From a virus: DNA of 64,000 nucleotides. A program made the translations under genes and the position numbers. Below, piece after piece: positions 28,404-64,000 of this stretch. The notes below the pieces were generated by a model. The model was not told where the DNA came from and did no database searches. It was given only the letters and a program-made list of their open reading frames with translations. Positions within the stretch are counted from its first letter, which is position 1. Every line of letters starts with the position of its first letter. The DNA lies in the IMG/VR virus record IMGVR_UViG_3300047157_000229, positions 38,796 through 102,795 of that record. One strand, written 5' to 3'.

Positions 28404-29111
28404 ATGAAATATTTAATCAACTATGCGAATAAAGGTTTTTATAAATCTCAAAAGATGAATTCTATTTCGGGTATATCTGCTGGATTTGATTCGGTTATCC
28501 AATATAGAGAAAAAGATATAGATAATGAATTCGCAAAGAAAAACCATAAAATACTGGATCAAATTCGTGGTGCTGGTTATTGGTTATGGAAACCTTATTT
28601 TATATACGAGACTCTGAAAAAAACAAACAATGGGGATATAATCTTCTATTCTGATAGTGGTGCTAAATTTATAAAGTTAATAGAACCTATTTTAAAAAAA
28701 ATAGAGGTAGCTAATAATGGAGTTGCGGTTTTTGAAATGTCGGGGCATCATAAAGAAAATGAATATTGTAGAAAACAAGTAGCTCAAGAAGTTGTGGGCT
28801 GCGATGAGAACATCATTAGTAGTGATCAAAATATGGCTAGTTTTGTTGGGGTACGTAATTGTCCAGAGGCGGTTGATATAATTTATCAATGGCTCAGTCT
28901 TTGTCAAAAAGAACACCTTATCATAGATTTACCGCCTCAAGAAGATGAGTTTCCCATGTTCAAAGAGCATCGCCACGATCAAACCCTTCTAAGTCTTTTG
29001 AGTAAAAAATTGAACTTAGACACTATTACTGATCCATCCCAGTGGGGTCTTATACATAAACAGACCACACAAGAAGATTATTTTATTGACCATCACAGAG
29101 GAAGAGAATGA
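28404..29111 (+). CDS. Putative GT-A glycosyltransferase
   Basis: RGAGYWLWKPY, YSDSG, EHRHDQ. Confidence 0.55.
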   Translation: MKYLINYANKGFYKSQKMNSISGISAGFDSVIQYREKDIDNEFAKKNHKILDQIRGAGYWLWKPYFIYETLKKTNNGDIIFYSDSGAKFIKLIEPILKKIEVANNGVAVFEMSGHHKENEYCRKQVAQEVVGCDENIISSDQNMASFVGVRNCPEAVDIIYQWLSLCQKEHLIIDLPPQEDEFPMFKEHRHDQTLLSLLSKKLNLDTITDPSQWGLIHKQTTQEDYFIDHHRGRE

Positions 29112-30746: not shown

Positions 30747-30776
30747 AAAAACAGAATACATCTGTGATAAATTATT

Positions 30777-31685
30777 ATGCTTAACATATCTTTCGAAAAA
30801 AACCCTATCCTTTATAAAGATTACGAGGCTTGCCAAGATATGTTGGCTAGCGTAAAAGATGAGGATTATGAGTATCCAGAACATGTCACTCTATTTCATA
30901 TATATACTGAATTCAGAACAGAAAAAGAGATAGAATGTCTAAAATCTTTTCTAGCCACACAGAACTTAGAAAAATGTAAGCTTATAATTTGGTCAGACTA
31001 TGATATAAATGATAACGAGTTAATTAGACCATATAAACAATATCTAGATTTAAGGTTATGGGATGCAAAAAAAGAAGCTAAAGGCACTATGCTAGAGGGG
31101 ATACCTCACTTAGAGGCTATGGATCATAAGCACTACTTGCAAAGTGATTTACTTAGAATATTAGCGTTGTATAAGTATGGAGGTGTTTGGGTAGATATGG
31201 ATATAATCTTTTTAAGAGATTTTAAACCTATTCTCGATCAAGAATATATGTATCAATGGGGAGGCGATACAGATTTTGCTAACCAAGGTGCTTGCGCTAC
31301 AGTCCTTGCTGGGTTTAAAGAGAGTGAATTTATGTTAAAATTGTTGCAGGGTGTTGTCGAATCAGAAATAATTCCTGCTACTACTGTATGGGGTAAAGAT
31401 TTGTTCGCTTCTCTGTGGAAAAAATGGCCTAATTTTACTATTTTTCCGTCTCCCTTTTTTAATACTGAATGGTTGATTAGCAAGAAAGATATAAAGCTAA
31501 GTGAAGATGTCGAAAACGGTTGGTTTATAAACAATGATATAGGTGATAAACATTTATTTTTAGATTCTTTTGCTTGGCATTGGCACAACTCCAGCAAGAA
31601 AAACTTACCTATAGAAAAAGGTTCGAAATTTTATGCTTTACGAGAATTGACTAACAAAAAGCTCAGGGATAAAAAAATAATATAA
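30777..31685 (+). CDS. GT32 (DxD) glycosyltransferase
   Basis: SDLLRILALYKYGGVWVDMD. Confidence 0.85.
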   Translation: MLNISFEKNPILYKDYEACQDMLASVKDEDYEYPEHVTLFHIYTEFRTEKEIECLKSFLATQNLEKCKLIIWSDYDINDNELIRPYKQYLDLRLWDAKKEAKGTMLEGIPHLEAMDHKHYLQSDLLRILALYKYGGVWVDMDIIFLRDFKPILDQEYMYQWGGDTDFANQGACATVLAGFKESEFMLKLLQGVVESEIIPATTVWGKDLFASLWKKWPNFTIFPSPFFNTEWLISKKDIKLSEDVENGWFINNDIGDKHLFLDSFAWHWHNSSKKNLPIEKGSKFYALRELTNKKLRDKKII

Positions 31686-31698
31686 CTTCAATAAAAAA

Positions 31699-32094
31699 AT
31701 GAATGTAGAAGTAGCTATTGGCGAGATCTTTGATAAGATAACTATCTTAGATATCAAGTTGGAAAAAATTAAAGATAAATCTCGATTATTTTATATTGAA
31801 AAAGAAAAAGATATTTTACAATCAGCTCTGTTGTCTGAAGATGTTAAGCTTGATTCTGGTCTATACCAAGACTTGCGTGAGATTAATGTAAAAATTTGGG
31901 ACACAGAGGCTGGTTTTAGAGATAAAGAATCTAAGAAAGAATTCGATGATCAATTTATTGAGTTTGCTAGATTGAATGCTAAATATAATGATGAGAGGTT
32001 TGTTATGAAAAAAAAGATTAACGAACATTATAATTCTGACATAAGAGAACAGAAATCTTATAACGCTTTATATGAAGAAGATAATTCAAATTGA
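31699..32094 (+). CDS. DUF6165-like protein
   Basis: IGEIFDKITILDIK...IWDTE...NDER...KKKIN...EQKSY. Confidence 0.65.
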   Translation: MNVEVAIGEIFDKITILDIKLEKIKDKSRLFYIEKEKDILQSALLSEDVKLDSGLYQDLREINVKIWDTEAGFRDKESKKEFDDQFIEFARLNAKYNDERFVMKKKINEHYNSDIREQKSYNALYEEDNSN

Positions 32095-33167
32095 ACCTTG
32101 GATTGACAAGCGGGAGCTTAAAGAGTTAAAAAGAGTCATTAAATCCACATTTGTCTCTGAAAATAAACTCAATGAAGAGTTTCAAGATTCTATTAAGAAA
32201 ATAACAGGGTCTAAATATGCAGTCTCAATGACAAATGGCACTGCGGCTATTTTTTGTGCATTAAAAGCTTTAGGAGTGGGCGAAGGGGATGAAGTTATCA
32301 TACCTAATCTTACTTTTATTGCTTCAGCTAATGCTGTTATTTTTGCTGGGGCTACTCCCGTCCTTTGTGACGTAAATGAAAAATCTTTGTGTATGTCATC
32401 GGAGGATGTCTTGAAGGTTATTACTCCAAAAACAAAAGCTATTATGCCAGTGCATCTTTACGGTCAAAGTTGCGATATGGACTCTTTGTTAGATTTGGCG
32501 AAGAAATTTAATTTAAAGATCATAGAAGATGCGGCTCAAGGTATGGGTGTTTTGTATAAAGGTAAACATGTAGGTACATTTGGTGATGTTGGTATATTAT
32601 CTTTTTACGCTAATAAAACAATTACATGTGGAGAAGGTGGAGTAGTGTTGAGTGCAGACGAAAATATAATTCAAGATTGTTATAAGATGAAAAATCATGG
32701 CAGATCTAAAAAAGGGGTTTTTGTCCATGAATCTATAGGTTTTAATTTTTGCTTCACAGAAATGCAAGCTGCCATAGGGATTTCTCAATTAAAAAAATTA
32801 AAAAAAGTAATACATAAAAAGAATAAAATACACAATTTTTATCTTAAAAATATAAACAATAATCTTCTTCGCGAAATACCATTTGATGAGAATACCACAC
32901 CCGTGCATTGGTTTTACTTCTTTTTTGACGGATTATAAAGAAGATTTCAAAAAACATCTAGATTGTAATGGCATACAAGTAAGAGACTTTTTTTACCCGC
33001 TACATAAGCAGCCTTGTTATCAAAACTCAGACTTGGTGGATTGTTCTGCAGAGCTTCCAGTGAGTGAAAAACTTTATAATTGTGGAGTTTCCTTACCTTC
33101 GTCTTATAATATAACCAAAAAAGAACTAAGCCGTGTGTGCGAAGTAATTAATGATTTTAGGATATGA
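32072..33167 (+). CDS. DegT/DnrJ/EryC1 aminotransferase, GDP-perosamine synthase-like (one indel near 32912)
   Basis: NGTAA, IEDAAQ, SFYANKTITCGEGG with catalytic Lys; C-terminus continues in ORF 32883..33167. Confidence 0.85.
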
Positions 33168-34321
33168 TCAACTTAGTAAAAGACACTATATCAGAAGAAG
33201 AAATATTGGAATTGGTAGATTGGTTAAAAACTTCTCCTCAACTCACCAAAGGTAAACTTACTGAAAAATACGAATCCCTCTGGTCAGATAAAATAGGGTG
33301 TAAGTATTCTGTCTTTGTCAACTCAGGATCTTCAGCTCTTTTGATATCTATATACTCTTTGATAGAAAAAGGTCTCTTAAAAAGAGGAGATAGTGTCATA
33401 GTCCCAGCACTGTCTTGGGCTACAGATTTATCTCCAGTAATCCAGCTTGGCCTTAAACCAGTTCTTTGTGATTGCAATCTTAATGATTTATCGGTAGATC
33501 TTGATCATTTACAATATTTGACAGTTAAAGAAAAACCTAAAGCTATGCTTTTGGTATCTGTTCTGGGGTTAGTCCCTGAAATGGATCATATTGTAAACTT
33601 TTGTGAAAACAATGATATCATTCTCATAGAAGATGCTTGTGAATCTTTAGGTTCTTCTTATAAAGGCCGCAAACTAGGTAACTTTGGTTTAATGTCTTGT
33701 TTCTCTACATATTACGGCCATCATTTATCGACTATTGAAGGAGGTATGGTTTGCACTAATGACGAAGATCTTTTTAATTTGTTGAAGTCTCTAAGGAGTC
33801 ATGGTTGGGACCGTGATATGAGCAATGAATATTCAGAGAAGTTAAGGAGAGAGTTTTCTATAGACAGTGAATTCGAATCACAATACAAGTTTTACTATTT
33901 AGGTTTCAACCTTAGATCTACAGATCTACAAGCTTTTTTAGGCATCAATCAACTCAAAAAGTTTGATAAAATAGTCGATAAAAGAAATAAGAATTATTGC
34001 CTTTATAGAGAAGCTTTAACTAATTCTTACTGGCAGTCTCCCGAATCAACAGAAGAAAAATATATTTCCAATTTCGCTTATCCCATCATTCACCCAAATA
34101 GAGATGTCATAACAAAAGAATTAAAAAATAATGATATAGCATCAAGACCTTTAATTTGTGGGTCTTTAGGGAAACAGCCTTTCTGGACAAAAAATTACGG
34201 CCCTTTAGATTTACAAAATGCTGATAAAATTAACGATTGGGGTTTTTATTTACCCAACAATCATGAATTAGAGCCAAGCGAAATAGAAAAAGTAAATAAA
34301 GTAGTAAAATCTGTGTGGTAA
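33164..34321 (+). CDS. PLP-dependent GDP-4-keto-6-deoxymannose 3-dehydratase-like (ColD-like)
   Basis: VNSGSSA, EDACES, FSTYYGHHLSTIEGG (His in place of Lys), RSHGW. Confidence 0.75.
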   Translation: MINLVKDTISEEEILELVDWLKTSPQLTKGKLTEKYESLWSDKIGCKYSVFVNSGSSALLISIYSLIEKGLLKRGDSVIVPALSWATDLSPVIQLGLKPVLCDCNLNDLSVDLDHLQYLTVKEKPKAMLLVSVLGLVPEMDHIVNFCENNDIILIEDACESLGSSYKGRKLGNFGLMSCFSTYYGHHLSTIEGGMVCTNDEDLFNLLKSLRSHGWDRDMSNEYSEKLRREFSIDSEFESQYKFYYLGFNLRSTDLQAFLGINQLKKFDKIVDKRNKNYCLYREALTNSYWQSPESTEEKYISNFAYPIIHPNRDVITKELKNNDIASRPLICGSLGKQPFWTKNYGPLDLQNADKINDWGFYLPNNHELEPSEIEKVNKVVKSVW

Positions 34322-34332
34322 TATATAATAAT

Positions 34333-35474
34333 ATGAAAAATTTAAAAGAGACTTACTATGGAAAAAAAATCGACCATATGAATATACTAAATATCGATGA
34401 CGCGACTAAGTGGTTGCAAGGTAAATCATGTGTTGTGGTTACAGGGGTGACAGGTCAAGATGGTAGTCATATGGTAGACTACTTACTAAAGAATACAGAT
34501 TATGTAGTTTTTGGATGTGTAAGGAGGTTGAGTGTTTATAATCATAAAAATATTTCTCACATCGATGACCAAAGATTTAAACTTATTAATTTTGATTTAA
34601 CTGACGCAAACCTTATCTCTAGAACTATTGAGGCTCTTAAGCCTAAGTATTTTATAAATTTAGCAGCGCAAAGTTTTGTCGGGAGTAGTTGGGATTTTGC
34701 TTTGCAAACATGGGAGACTAATTGCACTTCAGTGCTGAATATTCTTGAGGCTATCAGGAAACATACCCCTGAGTGTAGGCTCTATTACAACGCTGGCTCA
34801 TCAGAAGAATTTGGGGACGTCCTGTATTCGGTCCCTCAATCACGAACTTCACCCTCCTAGACCGCCAAGCAGTCCTTATGGGGCTTCCAAAGCTAGCTTC
34901 TAGGCAGCTATGGTTAAAGTGTGGAGGGACTCCTATGATATCTTTACGCTGTTCAAGGGTGGCTGTTTAACCATGAAGGCACTCGGCGCGGGGAAGAGTT
35001 TGTCACTCGTAAAATAACTAACTAATGTCGCTAGAATTAAGAACGAATATTCCGAAGGCTTGATTATTTTGAGCCTCTTTACAATTAGGTAATATAGATT
35101 CAAAAAGAGATTGGAGCGATGCGGAAGATTTTGTAAAAGGTGATTTGGTTGATGCTAAACCAAGAAGAGACCTAAAGAGTATGTTCTGTCTTCCAATGAG
35201 ACTCACACTATTAGAGAGTTTGTTGAAGAAGCTTTTAATTTTGCTGGGTTTGGTGCAGATAAGTGTCAATGGGTGGGAGAAGGTGTTGAGGAAAAATATA
35301 TTCATGAAGATAAAGTCTTAGTTGAAATCAATCCTTACTTTTATAGACCTGCAGAGGTTGATTTGCTTTTTGGGAGATTCGTCTAAAGCTCGTAAAGATC
35401 TAGGGTGGGAGCCTAAAAGCAGTTTTTTAGATTTGGTTAAAAAAATGGTTGACCATGATTTAGCGCATAGCTAG
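34333..35474 (+). CDS. gmd: GDP-mannose 4,6-dehydratase (multiple indels)
   Basis: VTGVTGQDGS, NLAAQSFV, AGSSEEFG, SPYGASK, LFNHEG.RRGEEFVTRKI, RDW, YRPAEVD across shifting frames. Confidence 0.9.
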
Positions 35475-37602: not shown

Positions 37603-39123
37603 ATGATATACAATTTTGAATTAGAAAAGCAACTGTTAGCTGGTTTACTCAAAGAGCCAGAAAGCTTGGCTGAGATATCTAATTTTATCAGTAATCTCAG
37701 ACTTTTACTCTAAGCAAAGTTCTCTTGCATTCTGCTGTCTTCCGTATCATACAACAAGCTATTGACGCTGGTGATGAGATTGATGAGATTATCGTAGCTC
37801 AAAGAGTTAATGATTTAGGATTATCCTTTGAGGACAATCTCAATCCTTCTGATTATATTAAGTCTTTGTCGCTCAGGAAAGTCCCAGAAGGTAATATTTT
37901 AAAGACAGCAAAAGAACTTAAAAAGTACTACTATACGAAGAGAGATACTTGAGTCTTCTCAAGAGATAGCTAAGAAGATGAAGAACATCTCACCAGAATC
38001 TTCTTACAGAGAGATTATAGAGGTGGCTGACAATGTTTACAATTCTCGCATTAATCTTTATGAGATCGGCAACGATACGCCAGAAAACATTTATGAGGAG
38101 ATGGAGGCTCTTGTCGAGGAGCGAGGCAACAACCCAGTCACAGAATTCGGAATGATGGGGCCGCATGAAAAGATTAATGATATTTATGGCTCTCTATTGA
38201 GAGCTGGTAATATAACTGTTATCGTAGCGAGGTCTGGTGTAGGTAAGACGCAGTTTTGCATGGATTATTCCACTAAAGTTAGTTTGAAATATGATGTGCC
38301 AGTTCTCCACTTCGACAATGGGGAGATGAGTAAAGAGGAATTAATTATGCGACAGTGCGCGGCTTTGTCTGGAGTTTCGATGCATTTACTTGAGAGTGGT
38401 AAATGGAGAAAAGCTGGTCAAGATGTGGTTGATAAAGTTAGGTCTGTATGGCCTAAAATTGATAAGTTAAAGTTTTTTTACTACAACGTCGGGGGTATGG
38501 ATGTTGACTCTATGGTGAATACATTGAAACGTTTTTATTACTCCAAAGTGGGTAGGGGTAATCAAATGGTCTTTTCTTTTGATTATATTAAAACGACCTC
38601 AGAGAGCAATGGTAACAAATCAGAGTGGCAAGTTGTCGGGGAAATGGTCGATAAGTTTAAAAAGTGTGTGCAGAAAGAAATTCTACACGATGGTAATCCT
38701 ATGATTCCCATGATAACATCTGTGCAATCCAATAGATACGGGATCACTAATAATCGAAACTCTCAGAATGTAGTTGATGATGAGTCTATCGTTTCTTTAT
38801 CGGACCGTATTACTCAGTTCTGTTCTCATATGTTTATTCTTAGAAGTAAGACGGGTGATGAGGTAGAGAGCGAAGGGGAACGATTCGGTACACACAAGCT
38901 TATTAATGTTAAAGCTAGACACTTAGGTAGTGATATAGCTGGAGCTGTAGAACCAGTAAGTATTGGAGATACTCTGAGAAAAAATGCTATTAATTTAAAT
39001 TTTAATAATTTTAATATCACAGAGAGAGGCGATTTAAGAGATATCGCTAGAGTGTTGAATGGAGAAGAGGAATTGCAACAAAATGAACATCAAGAAGAAA
39101 TCCCAGACTTCGATCAATTCTGA
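37603..39123 (+). CDS. dnaB: Replicative DNA helicase (indels in 5' part)
   Basis: N-terminus ELEKQLLAGLL...H..VF; ARSGVGKT, NGEMS, FDYI, VQSNR. Confidence 0.9.
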
Positions 39124-40170
39124 AGACTTCCAAGGAATCTTAGAGTCGATAGGTTACACTTTAATTGATTGTGGTGATCATTGGAGAACTCAAGCTCTAT
39201 ATCGAGATGGTGATAACAAAACTGCACTTAAGATTTACAAAAATACTGGCGTTTGGATGGACTTTGTCCAAAACAGGGGGAGTAAACCTTTTGAGGCTCT
39301 TATAGAACTCACGACTAAAGACAAAAAAGAAACAGAAGCCATCCTAGCTAACTCATATACAGATGAGGTTTCGACATATCAACCTAATGAAAAGATCCAG
39401 ATGGAAAGAATATATCCATGACTCGTCCTTAGAGAGAGCTATTCCCTAACTATCACTTCTATCAGGGTAAGAAACATATCTGAAGAAACCCAAAAGGCTT
39501 TTCAAGTAGGATTAGCGGGGGTTGGTAAAGATGTATAGGCGAATGGTTTTCCCTGTTTATAACGAACACAATCAAATTATTGGATTCTCAGGTAGACATG
39601 TGGAGTCTAATAATGATAAGTGGAAGCATCTTCCTAAATGGAAACATGTAGGGAAGCGAAACAACTGGGTCTACCCAGCTTTTAACACTGCGACAGGGGT
39701 CGATGAAGAGATAGAGTTTAAAAAAGAAGTAATTTTAGTAGAAAGTATAGGTGATGCGCTGGCTCTTTACGAACAAGGACATTAGGAACGTTCTTGTCAT
39801 TTTTGGCTTGTCCGTTAATAGTAATATTGTCAATTACCTTAGTAGCAGGGCTGTTAATCGCATATATATTGCTACAAATAACGACTAACAATGGCAGCAG
39901 TGAAAATAGAGGGCTTATTGCAGCCTTGAAAAGTTTTTTGAAATTGTCTAACTATTTCGATCTTGGGTCTTTAAGTGTAAAATTTCCGCCTAAGCCGTAT
40001 AATGATTTCGGTGATGCTCATTTAGACGGCTGCGACATTAAGAAAGACTGGTTGAAAAATCAATAGATCAAGATGCACAATTAAACTTTATTTGCGATTT
40101 TGTTAAAAACAACCCTTCTAGCTTCACTAAAAAAGAAGTAAAAACAGCCTTGTTGCTAAGTAATGACTGA
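39083..40170 (+). CDS. dnaG: DNA primase (indels)
   Basis: RMVFPVYN...IIGFSGR, PKW, TOPRIM VILVESIGDALAL, YNDFGD. Confidence 0.85.
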
Positions 40171-41971: not shown

Positions 41972-42596
41972 ATCATTATTAAGGTTTGATAAGAACCAAA
42001 AATATTTAGTTTTTGATACAGAGACTGAAGGTTTGAACTTAATCAGGTCAAGACCTTGGCAGGTTGCTTGGTTAGTGGTAGAGGGAGGTAAGATCTTGGA
42101 GAAGCACGATATGTTTCTGGATTGGCCGAACTTAGATGTCTCAGCGGGTGCAGCTAAGATCACAGGTTTTACTATGAAAGAGTATAATAAGAGAAAAGAA
42201 AGCCCTCGGAAGGTCTGGGAGAAGTTCTCTAAGAATCTTTACGATAAGGATACTTTTATCGTAGGTCAAAATTTATTAGGGTTCGACGTTTATATGGTTA
42301 ATATTTGGCGTGAGTTAATGAAATTAGAGGCTGATTACTCATATGTAGAACGCATTATTGATACTAGAGCTTTAGCTGTTGCTATAGCCAAAGATATTCC
42401 AGTAGATAAAGACGATTTTATCAGTTGGCAGTATAGACTTATAAATCATAGGGAAAGAAAGCTAAAAACATCTCAAGCTTTCTTGCTTAAAAAATACAAT
42501 ATAGATCATGACCCCAAACGATTGCATGATGCTCTTTACGACATTGAGATGAATTTTAAAGTTTTCCGTAAACAGCTCTTTGACTTAGAAATATGA
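41964..42596 (+). CDS. DEDDh 3'-5' exonuclease (DnaQ-like)
   Basis: FDTETEG, GQN..GFD, IDT, HDALYD. Confidence 0.9.
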   Translation: MDESLLRFDKNQKYLVFDTETEGLNLIRSRPWQVAWLVVEGGKILEKHDMFLDWPNLDVSAGAAKITGFTMKEYNKRKESPRKVWEKFSKNLYDKDTFIVGQNLLGFDVYMVNIWRELMKLEADYSYVERIIDTRALAVAIAKDIPVDKDDFISWQYRLINHRERKLKTSQAFLLKKYNIDHDPKRLHDALYDIEMNFKVFRKQLFDLEI

Positions 42597-45148
42597 ATGC
42601 ATTAAAATACACAGGATATAAAACGCCTTTCCCTGTAGGTGTTAAGTTGCCAGAGATTAAGATTGAGAATAAATACTACAAAGAAGTCTCATGTGAAGAA
42701 TCTGCAGACAATTACCAGTTTTTAAGGAAGTTGTGTTTCAAACGTCTACAACAAAAAGGTATTGACAAATTTGATAATGCTCAAGTTTACTATGATAGGT
42801 TAAAAGAAGAGCTGTCTATCTTCCAAGAGTTAGGGTTTGTAGACTATATACTACTAAACTGGGACATTATTAATTTTTGCGTAGAGAATGATATACCTAC
42901 AGGAGCTGGTCGAGGTAGCGCAGCTGGTTCTTTAGTTCTTTATGTTATCGGAGTGACGAATATAGATCCAATTGAGTATGATTTATTCTTTGAGAGATTT
43001 GTTTCGAAGAGTCGTGCAAAGAAGATAGAGCATGAAGGGGAGACTTTTCTCGATGGTAGTTTATTGGCTGATGTTGATAACGATATTTCTTATGATCGAA
43101 GATTAGAGGTTATAAAATATATTGAAAAAAAATATAAAGGCAAGACTTCTAAAATTTTGACGCTGAATACGTTAAGTGGTAAACTTTGCATGAAGGAATG
43201 TGGAAAGATAGTCGCGGAATTATCAGAGATGGAAGTGAATCACATTAGCGACTCGATTCCTAAGCACTATGGAATAGTGGCTAAATTACAAACGGCATAT
43301 GAAGAGAGCGAGACTTTCAAAAACCATGCGGATAAATATCCTAAAGTCTACAAGATAGCTAAAAAACTGCAAGGTCTGAACAAGAATACTGGAGTCCATC
43401 CTTCTGGGATATCTATTTCCTTTTATGAATTAGATGATATTATGCCACTACAGACGACAAATGATGACTCTTTGGTTTCGGCATATGACATGAATGATGT
43501 AGCCAGTTTAAGTGTCAAGTTCGATATCCTTGGTCTTCGAACATTGTCTGTCGTCCATGACGTTTGCAAGGGGCTAGGGATAAAGGCTTCTGATATAGAC
43601 CCTCATCACCCTAGTATATATGCGGCTTTATCTTGCTTAAGATCTCCGCAGGGGTTATTTCAGATTGAAGCAGATACAAACTTCAAAGTTTGCAAACTGA
43701 TCTCTCCTCAGAACCTCGAACAATTATCAGCGGTGGTCGCTATAGCAAGACCTGGAGCTTTAGATTTCAAGGATGCTTATGCTACTTATGTAAGAACTGG
43801 AGAATTCCAATCTGTTCATGAGTATTTTGATGACATCCTTAGTTATACTGGCGGGATACCTCTCTATCAGGAACAGTTGATGAAAATGGCTGTAAAAGTA
43901 GGTTTTAGTTTAGATGAATCGGAACAGCTAAGACGTATCGTCGGCAAGAAGAAGGTAGATAAAATGCCAGAGTGGAAGGCTAAAATTGATGATAAGATAA
44001 AAGAGAACGGGTTAGATCCTGAAGTGGGGGAAGTCCTGTGGAAAGTTGCAGAGGACTCCGCTAATTATTCTTTTAATAAATCTCACTCTATTAGTTATGC
44101 TTATTTAGCAGCGATTACTGTATACTTAAAATTCAACTACCCCCAAGAGTTTTACCTAAGTCTTCTGAAGTATACTAAGTTTGAGCCTAATTCTCATGAA
44201 GAGATAGCTAAGATATCTCAGGAGCTTTCTTATTTTGACATTGAGTTATTGCAGCCAGATTTAAATAAGTCGGATATCGATTTCAAAATTGAAGGTAAGA
44301 ATATTAGGTATGGTTTGAACTCGATAAAAGGTGTCTCGACTAAGGTCTTGGTATCTTTATTGGAATTTCGGGAAGATTCATTTTCTAATAAATATGAAGT
44401 CTTTTTGGCTGCTAAACAAGCAGGTTTGAACATCGGCACTTTATCAGCCCTTATACAAGCTGGATTGTTAGACTCATTTGTAAAACATACTAGACCAAGA
44501 TTGGTTTTGGAAGCCCAGACGTTCAATATTTTGACAGATAGAGAGAAGAGAAATCTACTTGAACTTGGTAAGTCATACGATTACGATATTATAACATCAA
44601 TACATGATGTAAAAACACAAGATATGGTTGGAGACGATAACAGGGTAATATTCAAGGACAAGAGGTTTGAGACATTCAAGAAAAAATATAAGCCCTACAA
44701 AGAAATTTATGAGATGAATAAAGTGCATAATAAGTACGCTAATTGGTATTTTGAAGAGAAACTATTAGGGTATAGTTATTCTTATAACATTAGAGAGATA
44801 TTTACTTATGGACAGGATTTTCATTCTGCTGACGCAGTGAAAGATCTTGAACCTAGAGCTAGGGTGAAATTCGTCGGCTCTTTAACTGATATTATAAAAC
44901 GTACTAGTCGGAACGGAAATAAATATGCTAGATTGACTATGCAGGATGAGACTGGTGTTTTAGAAGGGTTATTTCTAGATAGTGAGAGAGAGGGTCGATT
45001 AACTGATTATTTAGATTCTGGAAAAAAATTGCCTAATAAGGGTGATGTTGTTATAGTATTTGGGTCTAAAGGAGATGATATTGTGTTTCTCGACAAAATA
45101 GTCCCTTTGAAGGATAAAATCTATATGAAACTATCTGAACTAAAATAG
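42593..45148 (+). CDS. dnaE: DNA polymerase III alpha, catalytic part lacking PHP
   Basis: GRGSAAGSLV, FERF, ADVDND, HPSG, KFDILGL, YQEQLM, YSFNKSH, C-terminal OB fold. Confidence 0.95.
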   Translation: MNALKYTGYKTPFPVGVKLPEIKIENKYYKEVSCEESADNYQFLRKLCFKRLQQKGIDKFDNAQVYYDRLKEELSIFQELGFVDYILLNWDIINFCVENDIPTGAGRGSAAGSLVLYVIGVTNIDPIEYDLFFERFVSKSRAKKIEHEGETFLDGSLLADVDNDISYDRRLEVIKYIEKKYKGKTSKILTLNTLSGKLCMKECGKIVAELSEMEVNHISDSIPKHYGIVAKLQTAYEESETFKNHADKYPKVYKIAKKLQGLNKNTGVHPSGISISFYELDDIMPLQTTNDDSLVSAYDMNDVASLSVKFDILGLRTLSVVHDVCKGLGIKASDIDPHHPSIYAALSCLRSPQGLFQIEADTNFKVCKLISPQNLEQLSAVVAIARPGALDFKDAYATYVRTGEFQSVHEYFDDILSYTGGIPLYQEQLMKMAVKVGFSLDESEQLRRIVGKKKVDKMPEWKAKIDDKIKENGLDPEVGEVLWKVAEDSANYSFNKSHSISYAYLAAITVYLKFNYPQEFYLSLLKYTKFEPNSHEEIAKISQELSYFDIELLQPDLNKSDIDFKIEGKNIRYGLNSIKGVSTKVLVSLLEFREDSFSNKYEVFLAAKQAGLNIGTLSALIQAGLLDSFVKHTRPRLVLEAQTFNILTDREKRNLLELGKSYDYDIITSIHDVKTQDMVGDDNRVIFKDKRFETFKKKYKPYKEIYEMNKVHNKYANWYFEEKLLGYSYSYNIREIFTYGQDFHSADAVKDLEPRARVKFVGSLTDIIKRTSRNGNKYARLTMQDETGVLEGLFLDSEREGRLTDYLDSGKKLPNKGDVVIVFGSKGDDIVFLDKIVPLKDKIYMKLSELK

Positions 45149-50196: not shown

Positions 50197-52086
50197 TGAA
50201 GAAAACTGTATTAATTCATTCGAATTTTACTAGAGCTTTCACTGGTTTCGGTAAAAACAAAAAGAATATCATGCGGTATCTCCATGATACAGGCAAGTAT
50301 AATCTTATCGAGCTAGCTAATGGTATAGAATGGGAAGCTCCTAGCACACAGCTCCTACCTTGGACTTGTAGGGGTAGCTTACCTAAACCACAAGAGATGC
50401 AGGGATTAACTGCAGAACAGCAGAGGGAGCAAGGATATGGCTCTAAATTAGTCGATAGAGCGATTAAAGAGTTCAAACCTGATGTTTATATCGGAATGGA
50501 GGATATATGGGGTTTTAATGGTTACCATACGAAACCTTGGTGGAATAAAGTAAATACATGATCTGGACGACTCTAGATAGTCTTCCAATTTTACCTCAAG
50601 CTATTGAATATGCCCCTAAGATAAAGAATTATTATGTTTGGGCCTCTTTCGCAGAGAAGGCAATGAATGAGTTGGGATATAGCAATGTTAAGACATTGAG
50701 AGGTTCTCTAGATAAAGACAATTTTCATAACTAGCTGATGAAAAACGTCAGTTTATTAGGGAGAGGAATGGGCTAAAAGATGAATTTATCATTGGATTTG
50801 TTTTTAGGAATCAACTCAGAAAAAGTGTTCCTAATATCCTAGAAGGATTTAAGAAGTTTAAAGAAGACCACCCACAATCGAAGGCTAAGTTATTGTTACA
50901 CACTCACTGGTCTGAAGGTTGGGATATTCAGCGGCTTCTGAAAGAGAAGGGTATAGAGCATACAGATATTTTAACTACTTATGTTTGTAATAAGTGCGGA
51001 GCATATCACATATCCCCATTCAAGGGTCAAGAGCAAAATTGCCCTTCTTGTGGAACAGAGAAATCTGTAAACACAACGAATACTGGGAGAGGGGTAACAG
51101 ATACCCAGCTAAATGAAATTTATAATTTGATGGATGTTTACTGCCATCCTTTCACAAGCGGTGGTCAAGAGATACCTATCCAAGAGGCTAAGCTAGCAGA
51201 ACTCATAACACTGGTCACTAATTATTCTTGTGGCGAAGATTGTTGCACAGAGGAGTCGGGTGGTCTTCCATTGGAGTGGACGGAGTATAGAGAACCTGGG
51301 ACTCAGTTTATCAAAGCTTCTACTTGTCCAGAGAGCATATCCTCTCAGCTCTCGAAAGTCCATGCTATGACGCAGGAAGAACGAGATGATCAAGGTGAAA
51401 AATCTAGGCTATGGACTATAGATAATTTTAGTATCGAGGTAATTGGCAAACAGTTGGAGGACATCATTGATAAAATGCCACCTGTAGAATATGATTACGA
51501 AACAGCTCATTTGGACTTTAATCCTGATTATCAACCTAAAGGTGATTATGCCTCTAGTGCAGAGTTTATCATAGATATCTACAAGAATATTTTAAGAGAC
51601 GATGTAGACCACAACTCCCAAGGGTTTAAGCATTGGATGACTAAGCTACAGCAAGGCCAAAGTCCTCAAGAAGTCGCAAACTATTTCAGGCATGTAGCTA
51701 TCCAAGAAAGGCAGAAATCACAGATACCCAGTATGGAATCTCTTTTGTCTAAGCAAGGAGACAATAAGAGGATAGCAATAGTTATCCCTCAAAGTGAGGT
51801 AGATGTATTGCTTATTAATTCATTATTAAAGAATTTTAAATCGCAGTATCAAGATTATGATTTGTATATTTTTACAGACCCTCAGTATTACCCTTATATA
51901 GATGATAACCCTGCGATTTATAAGTTGATGCCATACAACCCTTCTATAGAAAATCAATTAGTTATGGAGGGTTGTAATGATCATGAAGGTTATTTTGAAA
52001 TGGTGTTTTATCCACACGCTACAACACAAAAATCATTGTCTTATTTACATAATGGACTCGATAAACACCAATTTTCTCTAAAATAA
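50196..52086 (+). CDS. Multidomain GT-B glycosyltransferase (indels at ~50558 and ~50730)
   Basis: TGFG, KPDV, FVFRNQLRK, CNKC...CPSC, SGGQEIPIQEA, DUF4214-like segment. Confidence 0.8.
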
Positions 52087-54788: not shown

Positions 54789-55202
54789 TTATTCTACAGG
54801 AGGGACAGGAGGATCTGGCTCAGGAGGTGGGGTATTAGCCCAAGTACGTAGAGCAGGAACGGCTGCAAGAATAGCATCCATTGCTGCCTTAACTTCTGGA
54901 ACCTCATCTACACAAGACCAAAAGGGTTTACGTCCATTAATTCTGCTAGGGACATTAATGTATTCGACTCCCTCATTATTGGCAGTTACAAGAACTTTCT
55001 CATTAGAGCCGTCATAAGGTAACATCTCAATATTGATGCTTCCTTCATTTGGCTCTTCTGTAGAGGTATTTGGTGCATAAATATTGATGCTACGTAGCCA
55101 TACAGAATCAAATGTCTCTTCTGGGCTAGCTGGGACAACAAAAGGCTCATCGCGTGGAACGGGATCGCCCAAAATCGGATCGGAATTATCGGAGTCTGGC
55201 AT
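54789..55202 (-). CDS. Hypothetical protein (possibly tail-fibre associated)
   Basis: 137 aa, Pro-rich ends; AGTGTAA motif upstream. Confidence 0.6.
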   Translation of the reverse strand: MPDSDNSDPILGDPVPRDEPFVVPASPEETFDSVWLRSINIYAPNTSTEEPNEGSINIEMLPYDGSNEKVLVTANNEGVEYINVPSRINGRKPFWSCVDEVPEVKAAMDAILAAVPALRTWANTPPPEPDPPVPPVE

Positions 55203-55966: not shown

Positions 55967-56161
55967 ATGAAAAACGTAGAACTGTCAACAGACGAAATTA
56001 AAGCCCTTATTCAAATCATCGACCTCGCTATCAAGTCTAGCGGTTTGGGATCAGCAGAAGCTGGTGTTGTACTCGCTAAGAAACTAAGCTCCCACCTTGA
56101 AGAGCAGCCGCAAGCAGATCAGGGTGAATCTGATTTTGAAGTAGTCGATGCAGGAGAATAG
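55967..56161 (+). CDS. Small helical hypothetical protein
   Basis: 64-aa ORF followed by a terminator. Confidence 0.65.
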   Translation: MKNVELSTDEIKALIQIIDLAIKSSGLGSAEAGVVLAKKLSSHLEEQPQADQGESDFEVVDAGE

Positions 56162-56187
56162 CCTCTATCATTTATAATATTTAACTG

Positions 56188-56218
56188 ACCCCCACCTAAA
56201 GAGGTGGGGGTTTTTTTT
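56188..56218 (+). terminator. Rho-independent terminator between convergent genes
   Basis: ACCCCCACCT-AAAG-AGGTGGGGGT followed by a T-run. Confidence 0.88.
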
Positions 56219-59200
56219 AACCTACTCTCCAGTTAGTTCCGTCTGAGTACATTGGGCAGAAATTAGATCCTGACCCTGCAGTAACTAGTCCAAGGGCTTG
56301 AGACAAACTATAGGATGAATCACTAACAAATGCTCGCTGTCCTGCGGGAGAAGCAGATGGCAATGTAGATACAGTATAAACTTTGTGTTTAATTGGCCCA
56401 TCAACATCAAGGGTTACAGATGGGTTATTAGTTCCTACGCCTAATTTAGTGTTGATAAAATAGCTTGAGTTCTTTCTGATCGCACAGACCTCAGTTCCTT
56501 GGTTCACGGTAGCAGACCCATACCTAAATGATGCGATGCCTTGGATACTCCCTGATTGAGCAGCTTGAACCCACAGAGTGGTACTAGTGCTATTCCTGCT
56601 GATTACATTGTAGTCAGTATTACTTGTGTCAGTTCTAAATGTATTTGCGGTGGCAATCCCATCAACGTCTAGACCAGCCGAATTGATCGTCACTCTTTGA
56701 CCATTGTTTACAAAAAATTCCAAGTTGCCATCAGACTGTTCTATTCGTTCATGGGTGTTATCCCATTGTAGAGAATATCCTGCATCTAACATTATATGGC
56801 CAACGCCTACATGTAGTTTTGCTTGTGGACTAGTTGTTCCTATACCAACATTGCCGCCATTTAAATAAGAATTACCATTAGTATTTAAGTGAATTTTAGC
56901 TGTATTGCTAGTATTATAAGCAAGGTAGTTCGCATTCCCGCTACTATCGTTATATAGTATATGTAATCTGTTTGTATTGTTATTAGCGTTAGCTTTACCT
57001 ATTATAACACCTTGACCTGCACTTATGAAAAATGCATGTTCACCCTGCCAATTATTTTGAGCTTGTGTTCCGTGTCCACTAATAAAAATATCCCGTGTTG
57101 CAGTAGAGTAGACTTGGAGTTTAGCTGCTGGACTAGTTGTTCCTATACCAACGTTCCTATCCCCCCTTACATATAACGCATTTCCAGTATTGTTTGAGAC
57201 ATCTAGTAAAGAATATCCTGAACTGTCTCCTGCATCGGAGCGCACTTTTAATACAGTGCCGCTAGATTGTGACGGGTTGTCGTGATGTATATAAGCTATA
57301 TCATCATTAGAATCGTCGCTTTTGACATGAAGTTTAAAAGTAGGAGCAAGTATTCCTATACCAACGTTACCACCAATAATAGAACTATTACCTTGACCCC
57401 TTAATATTACAGTTTGACTATTGCTCGCATTTCTTAAGAGTAATGCCCCGTCTCCAGTTCCTGTTTGTACGAGTCCAACAATTGGATTTGTGTTACTAGA
57501 TCTTTGTAAATAGAATCCATCGTCAGCACCGCCTGATTTGACTTCTAGTTTTACTGATGGACTGGTTGTTCCTATACCAACGTTACCGCCGTGTGAAACA
57601 GTAAAAGCTACTCCTCCTGCTGTGCTTGTTCCATTGTCGTTAAGAGGTTTTATTGTATACTTTCCACCACCCACATTTGTAGCAAAAACCCTTTCATTGG
57701 CAGTTGCTCCATTGTCAGACAAAACAATTGAAGCATCTGTATCTCCCTCAATTATCATTTGCCCTCTATCAGTACCACCATCAATTTGAAGTCTTGTAGT
57801 TCCATAGGCGGCACCATGTAATGTTCCTGGAGTAGTTGTTCCTATACCAACGTTACCCGTTTCATGCCAAGACATTGCTCTAGTTCCCCCGCTAATGCCT
57901 ATGTCTAAATAATCATCTACTCCAGATCCAGATTGAGCGCCTATAGTCCACGCTTCGTTTCCTGCATGATTAATATTTATGAAATTACCGCCAGAGCTAG
58001 GAACAGTAAAATTAATTGCTGCCCCTGAACTCAACGTTATATTTCCAATATTGATCAGGTTTCTACTAGCATCAATTACTTCCGTTGAGTCTATAAAATA
58101 TCCTTTCGCGTAAACATGATTCCAGACGTTGGCAGTTCTACCTAAATTCCTAGCTCCTGCTGTGCTATATGGATAAACATTGGAATCAAAATACGTGTCC
58201 TGATTAAAGTAATATGGTCGGTTACCTATAAAATGTATCCAGCTCCCATTCTGCGATCCAATGTCTATTTGACCAGTGCTTGTCGTTATTCTTACTGAGT
58301 TACCACTACCCTCTGACAATCTAGTGTTGGTGTCATTTAGATATAGATCGGTAGCCGTAATAGTTCCTGCAAAAGTTGCATTACCTGCGTTTGTAACAGA
58401 AAACTTAGAGGTAGTTACTCCACCATACCAAACTAAACTACCAGTTGCGCTAGTATTATAATTAAATCCTATTTCACCATTTGCACCATTTGAAATTCTG
58501 CTTGAAGAATTTGCAAGAAATAAATTACCTGCGTTAATTGTAACATTGCCTGTGAAATGAGCATTGTTTGATGTGTCTAATCTTAAAGAAGTTTGACTAC
58601 CTAGTATAAACCTTAATTCTCTAAGGTTGTTTGAAGCGTTTACATAAGTTGATTGAATATAACTATAAGCAGAATCATTTGTGCCTATTTGTATTGCTGT
58701 TCCACCCGATCCATTATGTATTGTTAAACCAGTAGATGCTACATTGCCAGAGGTTGTAGGCGCACCATTGGAATTAATTGATAATTTACTAAACGGACTC
58801 GTTGTTCCTATACCAACGTTGCCACTCGAAGCGATACGCATTTTTTCAGAACCACCTGACTGAAATAGCATAATACCTGTATTTCTAGCATTTAACGTCA
58901 GTGAACTACTACTAGATTTAATAGTGCCGTGTATTGATGAACCTGAATTAATATTTAAATCTCCTGAAACATTTACACCACCTGTAAAACTTGAAGCTCC
59001 TGATCCTGAGCATTGTATAACTCCTCCAACAGAAACCGTTCCTGTATTAGGATTCAATGCGAGGTTCGTGCCAGAAGGGGTTAATATTTGACCTCCACCG
59101 ACAGTTACATTACCTGCAAAGGTTGCGTTATTATCATTATTTAACGTTAAAGCAGATACATAACTCCCTGAATTCAATACCTGCAACTGTAAGTCTCCAT

Positions 59201-61618
59201 CAGTCCCGTTAGCTTCTAAAACCCCCACCACTCTAACTGCATCCACATAAGTAGTGCCTGTTGAGTAAGCTCCTAACCCTAATATAACTCCTGCTGCTCC
59301 TACTGAATCAACCGCCAAACCTCTGTTTAATTGTAAAGGATAAGCCCCTGTGTCTGTGAATCTTGAAGTTCCAGAGCTTCCAGCTGTTATAGCTCCAGAA
59401 CTTATTGTACCTGCAAAAGTTGATGACGTACCTGTTTTTGTTTCGTTTAATACGCCACCTGCATAAAAATATTGACCTACATTCGCTGCCCCATAATAAA
59501 CTATATGTTCATAAGAATCTAGTGCTATGTACGCTTTTTGTGAACCTGCATCATTAAATTGTATTTTACCACCTCCTGTACCATCTTTCTCAATAGTTAA
59601 TGTTGAGGATGTGCCATTATCAATGGTTACATTACCTGCAAAAGTTGCATCGCCATCACTATTTACTGTGATTAAATCGCTACTAGTGTTGAAATTATAA
59701 AGTCTGAAATTATTACTGCCACTAGGCACATACCAGCCATAAGAACCAGAACTATTTGTCGCTTTAAGTGCTGTTGGACCTGTTGTGCCTTCAACTTCAA
59801 TTCTTGCTGTTCCCGCATTATATACATGTAATTTCTCCAGAGGATGCGTTGTTCCTATACCAACGTTACCTGCTAGAGCGGTGCTGCCTTTAATAAATAC
59901 GCCACTTGTTCCCCCAGCATACCCTAAGTTTAAATCGGTAGTGCCAAAGACAAGGGTTGTATTCACATAACCCCCGAAAATTGCATTACTTGCAAAAGTT
60001 GCATCGCCATTGCTATTTTTAATTTCTAAAGCACGATTGCTTGTTCCGCTATACGTTATGTAAAGCTGAGTTCCATCATTATCTATTCTATTGGTAATAT
60101 TTGTCCCCGAAGCTGTTACATAAAAATTCTGGGCATAAGAATTAGGGGTAGAGGTATAACCTGCAAAGGTTACGTTACCGTCTCTGTTGATACGCATTTT
60201 TTCGGTATTACCAACTCCAGCTTTATATGTTTTAAATAATAAGTCTCTACCAACAACACTATCAGCATTGTTGTATTCTATTTGTATACTAGCATCACCG
60301 TTATTAAATGTTAAGAAAGCGCTATCCCCATTATTAATATTAGTATTTCCCTTTACAGTGAATGCGTTATGCAGAGTACTGCCACCAGTGTTTATACCAA
60401 CTTTACCATCACTCTTGATTGTAATACGATCCGCACTAGCGTCTTCATCTTTAATTCTTAAATCACTCGATGAATTTGTATATATAGAATAGGTTCTGGC
60501 ATCAGTTCTATCTATAGTGAGTTTTACATCACTGCCACTATCTGCGATATGGAGTAGAGAGGATGGATTAGTTGTTCCTATACCAACGTTACCGTCGTTT
60601 CTGATACGCATTGACTCTACAAGATCGGTAGAACCAAATTGAGAATGTTGCGTAAAGAAAGCTAATCCAATTTCGTTAGGGTCGGTGTCAGTCTGAATAG
60701 CTACGATTGAAGCGGCTTGAAGCTGTGCTTCGTTAGTAGAGCCAAAAGTAATAGATCCAGCATAAGCTCCTACTGCGGAACTCATAGTTTGATTACCTAT
60801 ATGAAGATCAGAATTAGCGTCTAAATAACCAAGTGAATAAGATTTACTGCCTTTTATATGCAATTTAGCAATAGGACTAGTTGTTCCTATACCAACGTTG
60901 CCGTCAGCCTTTATTGTCATTCTTTGGAATAGCCCACTATTTTCCGTCCAAAATGAAAGTTGACTAGTAGCTCCATTACCTTCCCTTATACCTCTTATTC
61001 TAGCGACATACCTATCGGCAGTATCATTAGAACTTGTTCTGAAATCTATGTTATAGCCACCACCATTAGTTATATTATTAGCGTCAAACTCCAGTAGGGT
61101 TTTAGGCGTTGATGTAAGTGCATCTAGCTATCGTCTAAATTATAAGCTGGAGAAACTGTTCCTATACCAACGTTGCCGCCATTTAATATAGTAAGAGCCT
61201 CTGAATCTCCTCCATCTATAAAACGTAATCTATCTGTAGTTCCCCCGTAAGCAATAGTAAATGCATTACTATTATTTGCGAGCATTATTGCTGATCTAGA
61301 AGTATCATCATTTCCATTAGATGAATTTCTTTTTACTTGCAATAGTATATTGGAGCTACTATAAGGAGATGCACCATCAGTAACAACAAGTCTGTGAGGT
61401 GGATTAGTAGTTGTTCCTATACCAACGGCGTTATTTATGTTAATGTTACCAGAAGAGTTGATGGTCAAACGAGGCGAGCTTTGTGTTTTAAGCGTCAGGC
61501 TGTCATAACCTGCTAACACTACCGCACCGTTTGAGTCACCCGATAGGGAATTTGTATCCATATTAAGATACAGATTCGCGTTGACCTTAAGATCATTATT
61601 TATGTTTCTTGTTGGCAT
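56217..61618 (-). CDS. Large modular tail fibre protein 1 (~1800 aa; frame break near 61125)
   Basis: ORF 56217..60920 is open upstream to ~61125 and joins ORF 61124..61618; many GNVGIGTTxP repeats. Confidence 0.8.
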
Positions 61619-63198
61619 TTCTTTTTATTTTAAATTTTTATTTAAGCGTAGGTGTTGTTGATGGAGCTTCCGAATGCTTCTACTGATACTCTCGGCGTGT
61701 AGCTCTTTGTCCCTGATCTAGATTTGAATGTAAAGGTTATGGTTGATCCGTTAGCAGATGCGGTTACATCAAAATCGTTTGTTCCTTCATCGATTACTTT
61801 TTGGGTGTTCCATGTCCCACTAGCATTGTAACAACTATAGACAATCTTTTGGTAATCTCCAGTGTGGCCGAAGCAGGTGAATGTGAAGCCAGCAGACATT
61901 CCATTACTCCCCGCAACTAATCCAGCCACCGCATAGCCCGTCGTGTTGAGGGAACCCGCAGACTTATGGTATGTGACCTTACCCCCAGCTAAGATACCGC
62001 CATTGACTTCTAGTTTATAAGCTGCATCTGCTCCTATGCCAACATTACCTCCCCCTTTTATTCTTAAACCCTCTATGGCTGTACCTGCCGTTGCAGTTTT
62101 AAAAACTATATCTCCATTAGCATTATTCCAAGTGTTACTTATTATTAAGTCTCCTGTAGAAGCAGCGTCGTAATCAATAACACCCCTGTATGCAGCGGTA
62201 TTGCCAATATAGATTGTCCCATTAGCATTGTTGTTTGATCCCACTCTATCACTCCACCCAGATACTTGTAATTGAGCGCCAGTTGAATTTATTACGCTTA
62301 ATTGATTACTATAAATAACTACTTCTCCAGTGGAACTAATACGCATTCTTTCTGCACCTGATGTAGAGAAACCTAAAGCATTTGCAGCGGCACGGAACAT
62401 CCCGTTATCAGGATCTCCGTAAAAACTGTGTGTTGGTGCAGCCGCTGAACCGTTGGTCGTACCTATTACACCTTGAACATGTAATAATGTGCTAGCATCA
62501 GGAGTAGTTGTTCCTATACCAACTTTACCACCACGAACAACTAATCCATAGCTAGTAGCAGCACCAGTAGAGTCAACCTCTGTTAATTGAGCGTATCTAT
62601 CAGAGTTAGCGTTATTACCTTTTAAAAATAATGCGCCACCATAAGATCCTGACCACATCGGTATATTATTACCAATTTGTATTTTACCAGCGGAATCAAT
62701 ACTGCATTTTTGTAGAATTATTCGCAACAATAGCTACTGATTGATTATCTAGAGTTCCAAATTGCCCAGTACCACTGGAAGCAGTTAAATATTTACCAAG
62801 ATTGTTTTGTATTCTACCATTTGCAACATCAAACTGAATAGCAGTCGTTGCCCCATTTCTGAAATTCAAACGCCGTTACCCCAAGAACCTCCTACTTGTA
62901 TACCCGCCGTGGCTGCTGAAAAGTATATTTGTGAACTCAATCCTATATAACCATTAACATCCAGCTTGTAGGCTGGGCCAGTAGATCCTATACCAACGTT
63001 ACCGCCATCTTTTACAGTTATAGCTGCTGTTGCATTACTATTATACCAGATGTCTAATCTGTCGTCATTATATTGAGGTTGGAATCCAAACTTTTTAGAA
63101 GTCCCACCAGAAGTATTTTCTATCGTAAAACCTGACGAAGTATTAGACGCTCCTTGCAAATGAAGCCCACTATCTGGACTAGTCGTTCCTATACCAAC
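56837..63198 (-). repeat. Dispersed 13-nt repeat GTTGGTATAGGAA (TTCCTATACCAAC on +), 13 exact copies
   Basis: + strand starts: 56837, 57140, 57353, 57569, 57839, 58805, 59852, 60575, 60884, 61159, 61414, 62511, 63186; a 1-mismatch copy at 62985. Confidence 0.9.
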
Positions 63199-64000
63199 TT
63201 CGCCGCCCTCTATAATACTTACTGCTCCTCCTAAATCTAATTTAGAAGCACCACTACCTCCCGTATTAGATATATAAAAGCTGTCATTCCCGCTTGCATT
63301 TTCTACTTGGATTCTTGCACTACCCTTTAATTTTAAAACATCAGAACTACTTCCCTCACCATCTATGGTTAAAGAATTAGTCATAGTTATACTATTAGTG
63401 GTAGTATTACCATTATCTGTTACTTCTTGTAAAGTATCTGCGCTACCAACTTGAGCATCTACATACGCTTTGTTAGCTGCATCTGTAGAAGCTGAAACTG
63501 TATCCACCCCTGTGATTCTACCTGTGCCTATCAGGTTAATTGTATTTGTTTGGAAAACTCCATCAGCGGTAGGGATACCATGTGCTACCAAAACTACCCC
63601 AATTTAAATGCCCACTAGAGTTCATCCACAGTGAATTAGAAACCCTACACTGACCAATGAAAGTTTAAGTTAGGAGAGTATTTATCGGCTGATTGAGCAG
63701 AGCCAACATTGCCTCTCTCTAAAATACTTATAGCAGAATTTTCCCAGTCGTTGTTATTTGTTAGAGTTGTTTCGAACTCTGACATACCAGCTTGAACAGA
63801 AAATTTAGTTGGAACAGAACTACTTCTTGGGGCTATTGCGCCAACTATGACAGTCCCCGCTGAATCGATGGTAAGTCTTGTATATTACTAGCGTCCCTAA
63901 TAAATAAATCGTTACCCCATAAACACCCATCTTCCACTTAACCGTGGTCGGGCTACCAATAGCTATAGCATCCGAATGAGTGGAGGCTTTAATTGTGCCA
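61642..64000 (-). CDS. Large modular tail fibre protein 2 (5'-truncated by the window end; several indels)
   Basis: ORFs 61642..62730 and 62866..63591 plus flanks; G[NKE]VGIG repeats, TLQEVTDNGNTT. Confidence 0.7.

Follow-up and report, generated by a model that had tools for sequence, protein, structure and literature searches.

Receptor-binding fibres set the host range of phages, and what is known of their natural diversification comes mostly by inference from a handful of cultured models. Is a peptide motif that recurs along such a fibre kept for structure only, or also as a recombination handle? We addressed this question, which the nucleotide-level signature of the motif copies makes measurable, in the two tail-fibre genes of an uncultured marine phage. 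The genes lie near one end of a 64,000-nucleotide (64-kb) stretch of viral DNA (IMG/VR record IMGVR_UViG_3300047157_000229, positions 38,796 to 102,795); hereafter, "the window" means this whole stretch. The original prediction, made from the sequence alone, held that a 13-nt word encoding the centre of a repeated GNVGIGTTxP motif joins otherwise unrelated fibre modules and serves as a short-homology crossover point. We found that the word is uniformly spelled, that similarity to other viral contigs switches sharply at its copies, and that modules are ordered differently and shared between phages.

A uniformly spelled junction

The exact 13-mer core, EGGEVGIGTTSP, lies on the minus strand. A recount gave the predicted 13 copies, all on the minus strand within 56837-63198 and with zero matches elsewhere in the window; none of 100 window shuffles contained a match. 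No inverted copies of the core were found, and all 13 are direct. In an in-frame reading of the fibre region, we identified 15 VGIG motifs and one VGIN. The spelling GTT GGT ATA GGA is used in 14 of the 15 VGIG motifs, and the two Gly codons of VGIG differ from one another in every copy. As predicted, the uniform word is often longer than the core: the core plus ACA (a Thr codon, giving a 15-mer) has 11 copies, and a 20-mer (AAC...ACAAC) has 7 copies in the window. The codons of V-G-I-G-T show no synonymous variation of the kind found at the conserved flanking residues (Gly -2, Thr +5, Pro +7), which are written with several codons. Neither junction scars nor length variants of the motif were seen among the window copies.

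The segments between cores are dissimilar, as had been noted. Spacing from copy to copy ranges from 201 to 1097 nt, the nucleotide similarity of modules to each other is confined to their first 17-42 nt, and short modules are 26-38% identical to one another as proteins; exact repeats in the fibre region reach 23 nt at most. Because the modules are this divergent, recent duplication is excluded as the cause of the uniform spelling. Codon bias does not explain it either. Although GTT, GGT, ATA, and GGA are each common as single codons in the window, the window's codon usage gives the spelling GTT GGT ATA GGA a probability of only 0.016-0.022 per VGIG motif, and the probability that at least 14 of 15 motifs have this spelling is ~1e-22 to 1e-24.

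The core also has an apparent dyad symmetry (GTT-GG-TATA-GG-AAC), which we considered as a protein-binding site and rejected. The third bases of the Val and second Gly codons are unassociated among A/T spellings (p = 0.44 and 1.0), and the symmetry is no general feature of the core.

Fibre similarity ends at the junctions

We compared the window fibres by local blastn with the 102 other IMG/VR stretches (L-numbers) in which the exact 20-mer is present, which have up to 19 cores per locus, and kept the 23 matches that were 100 nt or longer and at least 85% identical. Single modules recur in contigs of other marine samples at 90-98% nucleotide identity. Among unique match ends, 20 of 36 lie within 35 nt of a core, compared to 17.8% expected (P = 4e-7), and none of 20000 permutations reached this count. 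Both ends fall on cores in 8 of 21 window matches, compared to a permutation mean of 0.8 and a maximum of 5. When the 102 loci were compared with each other (matches of 150-1500 nt, with near-identical pairs removed), 219 of 324 match ends were near a motif versus 66 expected, and 86 matches had both ends there. Breakpoints therefore fall on the motif far more often than chance allows, in line with the original prediction, and we encountered neither a codon bias sufficient to explain the spelling nor colinear fibres with breakpoints unrelated to the repeat.

The position of the switch is narrow. Similarity drops to chance level between about -12 and +29 nt from the core, in many cases at both ends of a module; relative to the Val codon, module starts lie at -12 to +5 and module ends at +12 to +29. 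The upstream MRI strand is equally conserved but is not used as a breakpoint. Module 60896-60587, for example, is ~98% identical to its counterpart in L040 over 343 nt, with unrelated flanks on both sides and the switch inside the shared block, and alignments of other modules show the same sharp switch. Nearly all remaining ends lie either on a second motif, (N/D)ATFAG(N/T)VT (class 2), the 20-mer of which was found in 98 viral stretches, or on degenerate copies of the first motif. The prediction had named a single junction class and missed this second one, which holds most of the remaining breakpoints.

The exact 20-mer of the first motif is also present in contigs labelled as giant-virus metagenome-assembled genomes (GVMAG; L019, L026, L036, and L042). 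They may be genuine fibre-like genes or phage DNA that was binned wrongly.

Modules are reordered and shared between phages

As expected if modules move, contigs differ in module order and number. In L040, the gene-2 module 60896-60587 is joined directly to the gene-1 module 62997-62705. L077 joins 61171-60896 to 57581-57365, modules that are 3.3 kb apart in the window, and L046 carries shared modules in permuted order. From contigs of public sequencing runs, we counted as real only one alternative order, that of a 12.3-kb contig of run X18 in which module 61185-60874 is inserted between 62705 and 62700 with 255-nt flanks. Most other motif-to-motif joints in run contigs have sides of just 20-44 nt and may originate in other phages with the same motif.

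Five stretches (L069, L013, L023, L028, and L091) are syntenic relatives of the window, with flanking proteins 55-88% identical. The best of these, L069, ends 1 kb into the fibre, which precludes a full colinear comparison. Modules are also found far outside this group: the L038 and L040 contigs (~60 kb, CheckV 100%) have no homologue of the window polymerase, yet they carry window modules at 93-98%. Judged by sequence, this sharing indicates that exchange crosses unrelated phages.

Two observations concern the surroundings of the modules. Directly downstream of the fibres, a 137-amino-acid protein (54789-55202, minus strand) without a Pfam or PHROG match is 73-86% identical in relatives and ~28% identical in the unrelated ~60-kb phages L018, L038, L040, L046, and L098; it may act in fibre assembly or as a chaperone. 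In run X1, summed contig depth over 56100-63700 varies from ~33 to 318, with tenfold differences between adjacent modules, which would be expected if several phage populations of unequal abundance within one sample carry single modules.

The spelling outlasts synonymous saturation in one module pool

In ordinary genes, the window and its relatives use the same codon at only 32-54% of conserved V, G, I, and T residues, which means that synonymous sites are saturated. L013 nevertheless keeps the core spelling at 18 of its 19 motifs, and L091 does so at 16 of 17; both are of a class of relatives with flanking genes 70-86% identical at the amino acid level, so neither codon bias nor recent duplication explains it. 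Across all 102 loci, after removal of the one ascertained copy per locus, the core spelling is present in 54% of motifs. Single core codons agree in ~80-88% of cases uncorrected and 77-86% corrected, versus ~50% for flanking conserved codons.

Viral loci that contain GNVGIGTT but were not selected for the 20-mer present a different picture. GTT GGT ATA GGA accounts for only 7 of their 241 motifs, many spellings occur, and only some of the loci are internally uniform, each with its own spelling. On average, the core in these phages is no more uniform than its flanks, and we therefore rejected a universal codon constraint on the motif. Because unselected loci vary in these ways, a translational or folding constraint and a universal DNA signal are excluded, and the uniformity belongs to this module pool.

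Some unrelated loci (L137, L124, and L205) are uniform for a different spelling, as in 9 of 11 motifs in L137. Pools other than the present one may use a junction version of their own.

What moves the modules

We consider it probable that modules move by in-frame recombination in the shared block, both from phage to phage and among non-allelic copies, and that the junction copies evolve in concert. According to this model, the two genes would encode long, presumably trimeric fibres, each a chain of semi-independent beta-rich modules that open with the loop motif GNVGIGTTxPxxKL(H)V, the long modules being subdivided by the class-2 motif. A marine phage pool that includes unrelated genome types would carry the loop-coding block, roughly 15-23 nt, in near-identical spelling. 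Guided by this short homology, co-infecting phages and non-allelic copies would recombine in frame inside or right beside the block, and modules would be inserted, deleted, permuted, and exchanged with frame and fold intact, possibly altering host range. Such ectopic exchange would mix the motif copies into one population, and their concerted evolution would homogenise the block and keep its synonymous sites uniform. As an extension that we put forward only tentatively and think unlikely, selection for exchangeability would itself keep the synonymous sites of the junction: an ocean-wide module pool would share a standard in-frame connector of ~15-20 nt that allows any-to-any joining, and modules with drifted connectors would leave circulation.

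The rival that survives best is selection on the boundary only. Recombination would be illegitimate or homology-independent, only chimeras joined at the loop would fold and survive, and the uniform spelling would be a passive by-product without any targeting. As a complete account, this is possible but doubtful. Part of the evidence for it is structural. The only solved sequence relative is Bd2133 of Bdellovibrio (PDB 8OND), which aligns on the motif plus the MRI strand (E = 5e-5) with the pattern ...RMRI..SGN(V/L)G(I/L)GT..P...L..V. In mosaic adhesive trimers (MATs), a closely matching motif is described as capping loops on the edges of segments of intertwined trimeric beta-helix, and the tips of these trimers as independently folding and apparently swapped (Caulton et al. 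2024, PMC10769870). The capping-loop motif V-G-x-G/N-small-x-x-P-x-x-x-L has 15 copies in the window fibres. A single-sequence monomer model of three modules, made with no alignment, was unusable (predicted local distance difference test score, 37), and the link to this fold is the sequence alignment to 8OND alone.

Several further results favour boundary selection or weigh against a role for nucleotide homology, in addition to the lack of homogenisation in unselected phages described above. Breakpoints occur at 44% of variant cores versus 48% of consensus cores (stratified Mantel-Haenszel odds ratio, 0.96); we looked for a preference for consensus cores and found no difference, which lowers the claim that homology is required. 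A codon-agnostic search for relatives of module 57152-56849 returned modules 74-78% identical in amino acids that are bounded by the same peptide motif in other codons, so the boundary is defined at the protein level as well, and L224 carries a 95%-identical copy with 1-2 substitutions in the cores that flank it. The identical block, at 13-23 nt, is at or under the published minimal pairing lengths of 23-27 bp for Red-beta and 31-34 bp for RecA (PMC3945230). Scans of ~29 open reading frames (ORFs), a part of the total, against Pfam or PHROGs detected no recombinase, invertase, or reverse transcriptase. The two catalysts originally proposed did not hold up: the supposed RecA (37978-39123) is a DnaB-type helicase (DnaB_C), and the ORF at 53213, called a Rad52-like annealase, has no Pfam, PHROG, or PDB sequence match. 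Since variant cores are used equally, boundaries exist in other codons, the block is short, and no recombinase was found, selection for structure at the boundary certainly contributes and could account for everything. Three results do not fit boundary selection well: crossovers are confined to the nucleotide-identical block instead of being spread over the ~70 nt that code for the conserved boundary peptide; synonymous sites of five adjacent codons are kept where others in the genome are saturated; and scars and length variants of the motif were not seen. Module exchange is thus largely supported, by breakpoints, module order, and persistence of the spelling, but a need for exact nucleotide identity is not.

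A dedicated sequence-specific nuclease or recombinase, of phage or host, that recognises the core and triggers exchange, shufflon-like but on direct repeats, would account for the very narrow distribution of breakpoints and for a block of ~15 nt kept at the nucleotide level across unrelated phages. We regard this as very unlikely, given the absence of inverted copies, the equal use of variant cores, the limited reach of the dyad symmetry, and the absence of a candidate enzyme from the scanned ORFs.

An assembly artefact is less likely still. Every comparison sequence is a metagenome assembly, and assemblers that jump between co-occurring phages at a shared word would produce false mosaics, both in the window and in IMG/VR. 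Logan contigs do break at motifs, and many continue into unlike sequence (share 0.29-0.71). Four window junctions (57851, 60587, 60896, and 61171) are unbridged among the run contigs listed, which is uninformative either way. However, the exact repeats, at 23 nt or less, are below the usual final k-mers, and ordinary k-mers span them. In an independent 2025 run, a 5.8-kb contig matches 56100-57809 without difference and crosses four junctions; other run contigs span 58817, 59864, 61426-62523, and 62997-63198, so that most junctions are crossed by independent contigs with no mismatch; and modules with the same boundaries recur across the contigs of many samples. Finally, codon bias or a translational or folding constraint that fixes the codons has next to no chance of being the cause, however common the single codons are, in view of the joint probability (~1e-22), the two Gly codons that are never alike, and the many spellings in unselected phages.

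Relation to known systems

The MAT paper (PMC10769870) concerns protein architecture; here, the subject is junction conservation and breakpoints at the DNA level. The window fibres have a peptide motif in common with Bd2133, but no S74 chaperone was detected in them (Pfam, E <= 0.01), and they are at best of a non-S74 kind among MAT/S74-type fibres.

In T-even phages, long-tail-fibre and adhesin genes are shuffled at motifs, namely, His boxes in gp37 and glycine-rich motifs in gp38 (Tetart et al. 1996/1998, as related by Trojet et al. 2011, PMC3157838). Fibre genes are mosaic there and here, and in both cases breakpoints fall within or next to short conserved motifs. The likeness is one of working and not of descent: the motif, the fibre family, and the phages (here, uncultured marine phages with a DnaE-type polymerase) are unrelated, and neither fibre gene contains a G.H.H (His) box. 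T-even exchanges were shown in crosses, whereas ours are deduced from sequence comparisons. The present system also differs in having up to 15-19 junctions per locus, uniformity at the codon level, and exchange across unrelated genome types in a marine pool. The principle of exchange at conserved fibre motifs is therefore known from T-even phages. What is new is the motif and its fibre family, the number of junctions, the codon uniformity that outlasts saturation, the sharing between unrelated marine phages, and the narrow mapping of the crossover zone; no mention of the motif string was found in the literature searched.

Within one genome, shufflons and invertible fibre segments (R64 Rci/sfx, Mu Gin, and P1 Cin) use inverted repeats together with a site-specific recombinase dedicated to them. 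There, as here, short repeats within coding sequence make it possible to join alternative C-terminal segments of a fibre or pilin in frame. Our locus differs in that copies are direct only, no recombinase was found (~29 ORFs), and the variation is between genomes. Duplessis and Moineau reportedly described in 2001 that collagen-like repeats flank the variable region for host range in Streptococcus thermophilus phages and proposed these as recombination points. Conserved repeats flank variable fibre segments in that gene as they do here, but the repeats are Gly-X-Y tracts with few junctions and no codon-invariant unique word. A diversity-generating retroelement differs as well: no reverse transcriptase is present in the scanned ORFs, and the repeats, words of 13-42 nt, do not form template/variable pairs of ~100 nt.

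Relaxed homologous recombination by phage annealases is a described source of phage mosaicism: exchange between phages needs no more than short or diverged homology, traces of which remain beside the mosaics (De Paepe et al. 2014, PMC3945230). That system involves hundreds of bp of diverged homology and a minimal pairing length of 23-27 bp; our blocks are 13-23 nt, and no annealase was identified.

The fibre genes, their record, and the phage

Coordinates of the fibre genes and junctions are given in Table 1. PHROGs annotate the fibre ORFs as tail fibre, and no Pfam family was detected in any of them at E <= 0.01. As recorded, the region consists of four ORFs and not the two genes that had been proposed. 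Fibre gene 1 has breaks near 62867-62870 and at 62701, and fibre gene 2 is split by extra bases at 61126 and 61136 into ORFs of 164 and 1567 amino acids. Homologues in L077, L040, and L013 are intact where the window has differences of one or two bases, the indel bases at 61126, 61136, 62701, 62867, and 63580 are absent from contigs of three public runs, and applying the run-contig variants gives two open frames of 673 and 1801 codons. The two-gene claim thus holds once the frame breaks are allowed for. The breaks are most likely record errors, because run contigs lack those bases and other window genes are also fragmented. The primase (39059-40066), a GDP-mannose-dehydratase-like gene (34315-34860), and an aminotransferase (32072-32938) look truncated or split, too, which suggests scattered indel errors in the record. 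Given the indel at 63580, the 5' end of fibre gene 1 may be further upstream.

Table 1. Fibre genes and module junctions in the window (L-numbers, other IMG/VR stretches).
Feature	Position	Strand	Remarks
Fibre gene 1	61642..63591	-	PHROG tail fibre; intact homologues in L040, L013
Fibre gene 2	56217..61618	-	PHROG tail fibre; intact frame in L077
Exact 13-mer core	63186..63198	-	
12-mer core, then T (GNVGIGSTGP)	62986..62997	-	Breakpoint with L037, L040
Non-canonical join (STKM, then RIDSAGKIQIGNN)	62696..62710	-	L040/L037 similarity stops, L013 similarity starts
Exact 13-mer core	62511..62523	-	Breakpoint with L037 (start), L013 (end)
Variant core, first Gly = GGC	62032..62043	-	Breakpoint with L037, L046
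Exact 13-mer core	61414..61426	-	
Exact 13-mer core	61159..61171	-	Start of L077-shared module, 96.8%
Exact 13-mer core	60884..60896	-	L077 module end; L040 module start (97.7%)
Exact 13-mer core	60575..60587	-	L040 module end; L070 module start
Variant core, VGIN	60390..60401	-	L070 module end
Class-2 junction DGNVTFAGY	60144..60182	-	Breakpoint with L052, L013; families D4, D6
Class-2 junction GDATFASN	59973..60011	-	Breakpoint with L013, L037, L046
Exact 13-mer core	59852..59864	-	End of segment common to L037, L046
Class-2 junction GDATFAGNVTI	59619..59657	-	Cluster of run-contig loose ends
Class-2 junction NNATFAGNVTV	59097..59135	-	Breakpoint with L046
Exact 13-mer core	58805..58817	-	End of L046, L038 segments; L028 segment start
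Class-2 junction variant NNAHFTGNVTI	58533..58571	-	Breakpoint with L028, L077
Class-2 junction GNATFAGTITA	58350..58388	-	Breakpoint with L077
Exact 13-mer core	57839..57851	-	L046 segment end
Exact 13-mer core	57569..57581	-	L077 module start
Exact 13-mer core	57353..57365	-	L077 module end
Exact 13-mer core	57140..57152	-	Start of module common to L048, L046, L038, 96-97%
Exact 13-mer core	56837..56849	-	End of module common to L048, L046, L038
Degenerate copy KLGVGTNNP	56430..56447	-	Breakpoint with L006

A third recurrent word (family D7), which encodes the (G)SEKMRI strand, lies upstream of some motifs (58833-58856, 60189-60212, and 62338-62361). The non-canonical join of fibre gene 1 sits in such a strand, and at the equivalent point, L040 and the run X18 contig have a canonical motif.

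The window phage encodes a 2333-amino-acid tape measure, a ribonucleotide reductase, a Lon-like protease, and a DnaE-like polymerase (Pol III alpha type; 42593-45148, plus strand), which is at best 32.3% identical to that of a cultured phage and 51% identical to that in the 94-kb contig behind L013. Across 11 studies, 20 marine viral or seawater runs contain the region, at 67-91% of sampled words. Megablast over 24 kb found no cultured relatives, tblastn of three modules gave no match to cultured relatives, and blastn of the fibre region returned only 65-185-nt matches to Synechococcus phages. Elsewhere in the window, a low-GC island at 26000-34860 (29-33% versus ~37%) carries genes for sugar modification, among them DegT-type aminotransferases and an epimerase/dehydratase, and glycosyltransferase-like ORFs lie at 18333-19421 and 50893-52086.

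Implications for fibre diversification

One window, read against public viromes, provides a clean natural example of fibre diversification in which junctions are located within ~40 nt and dozens of modules are interchangeable. Chimeric fibres for laboratory phages could be built at the natural, structure-compatible cut points that the motif offers. The fibre region of a marine phage contig is a mosaic, and similarity within it should not be read as relatedness between phages.

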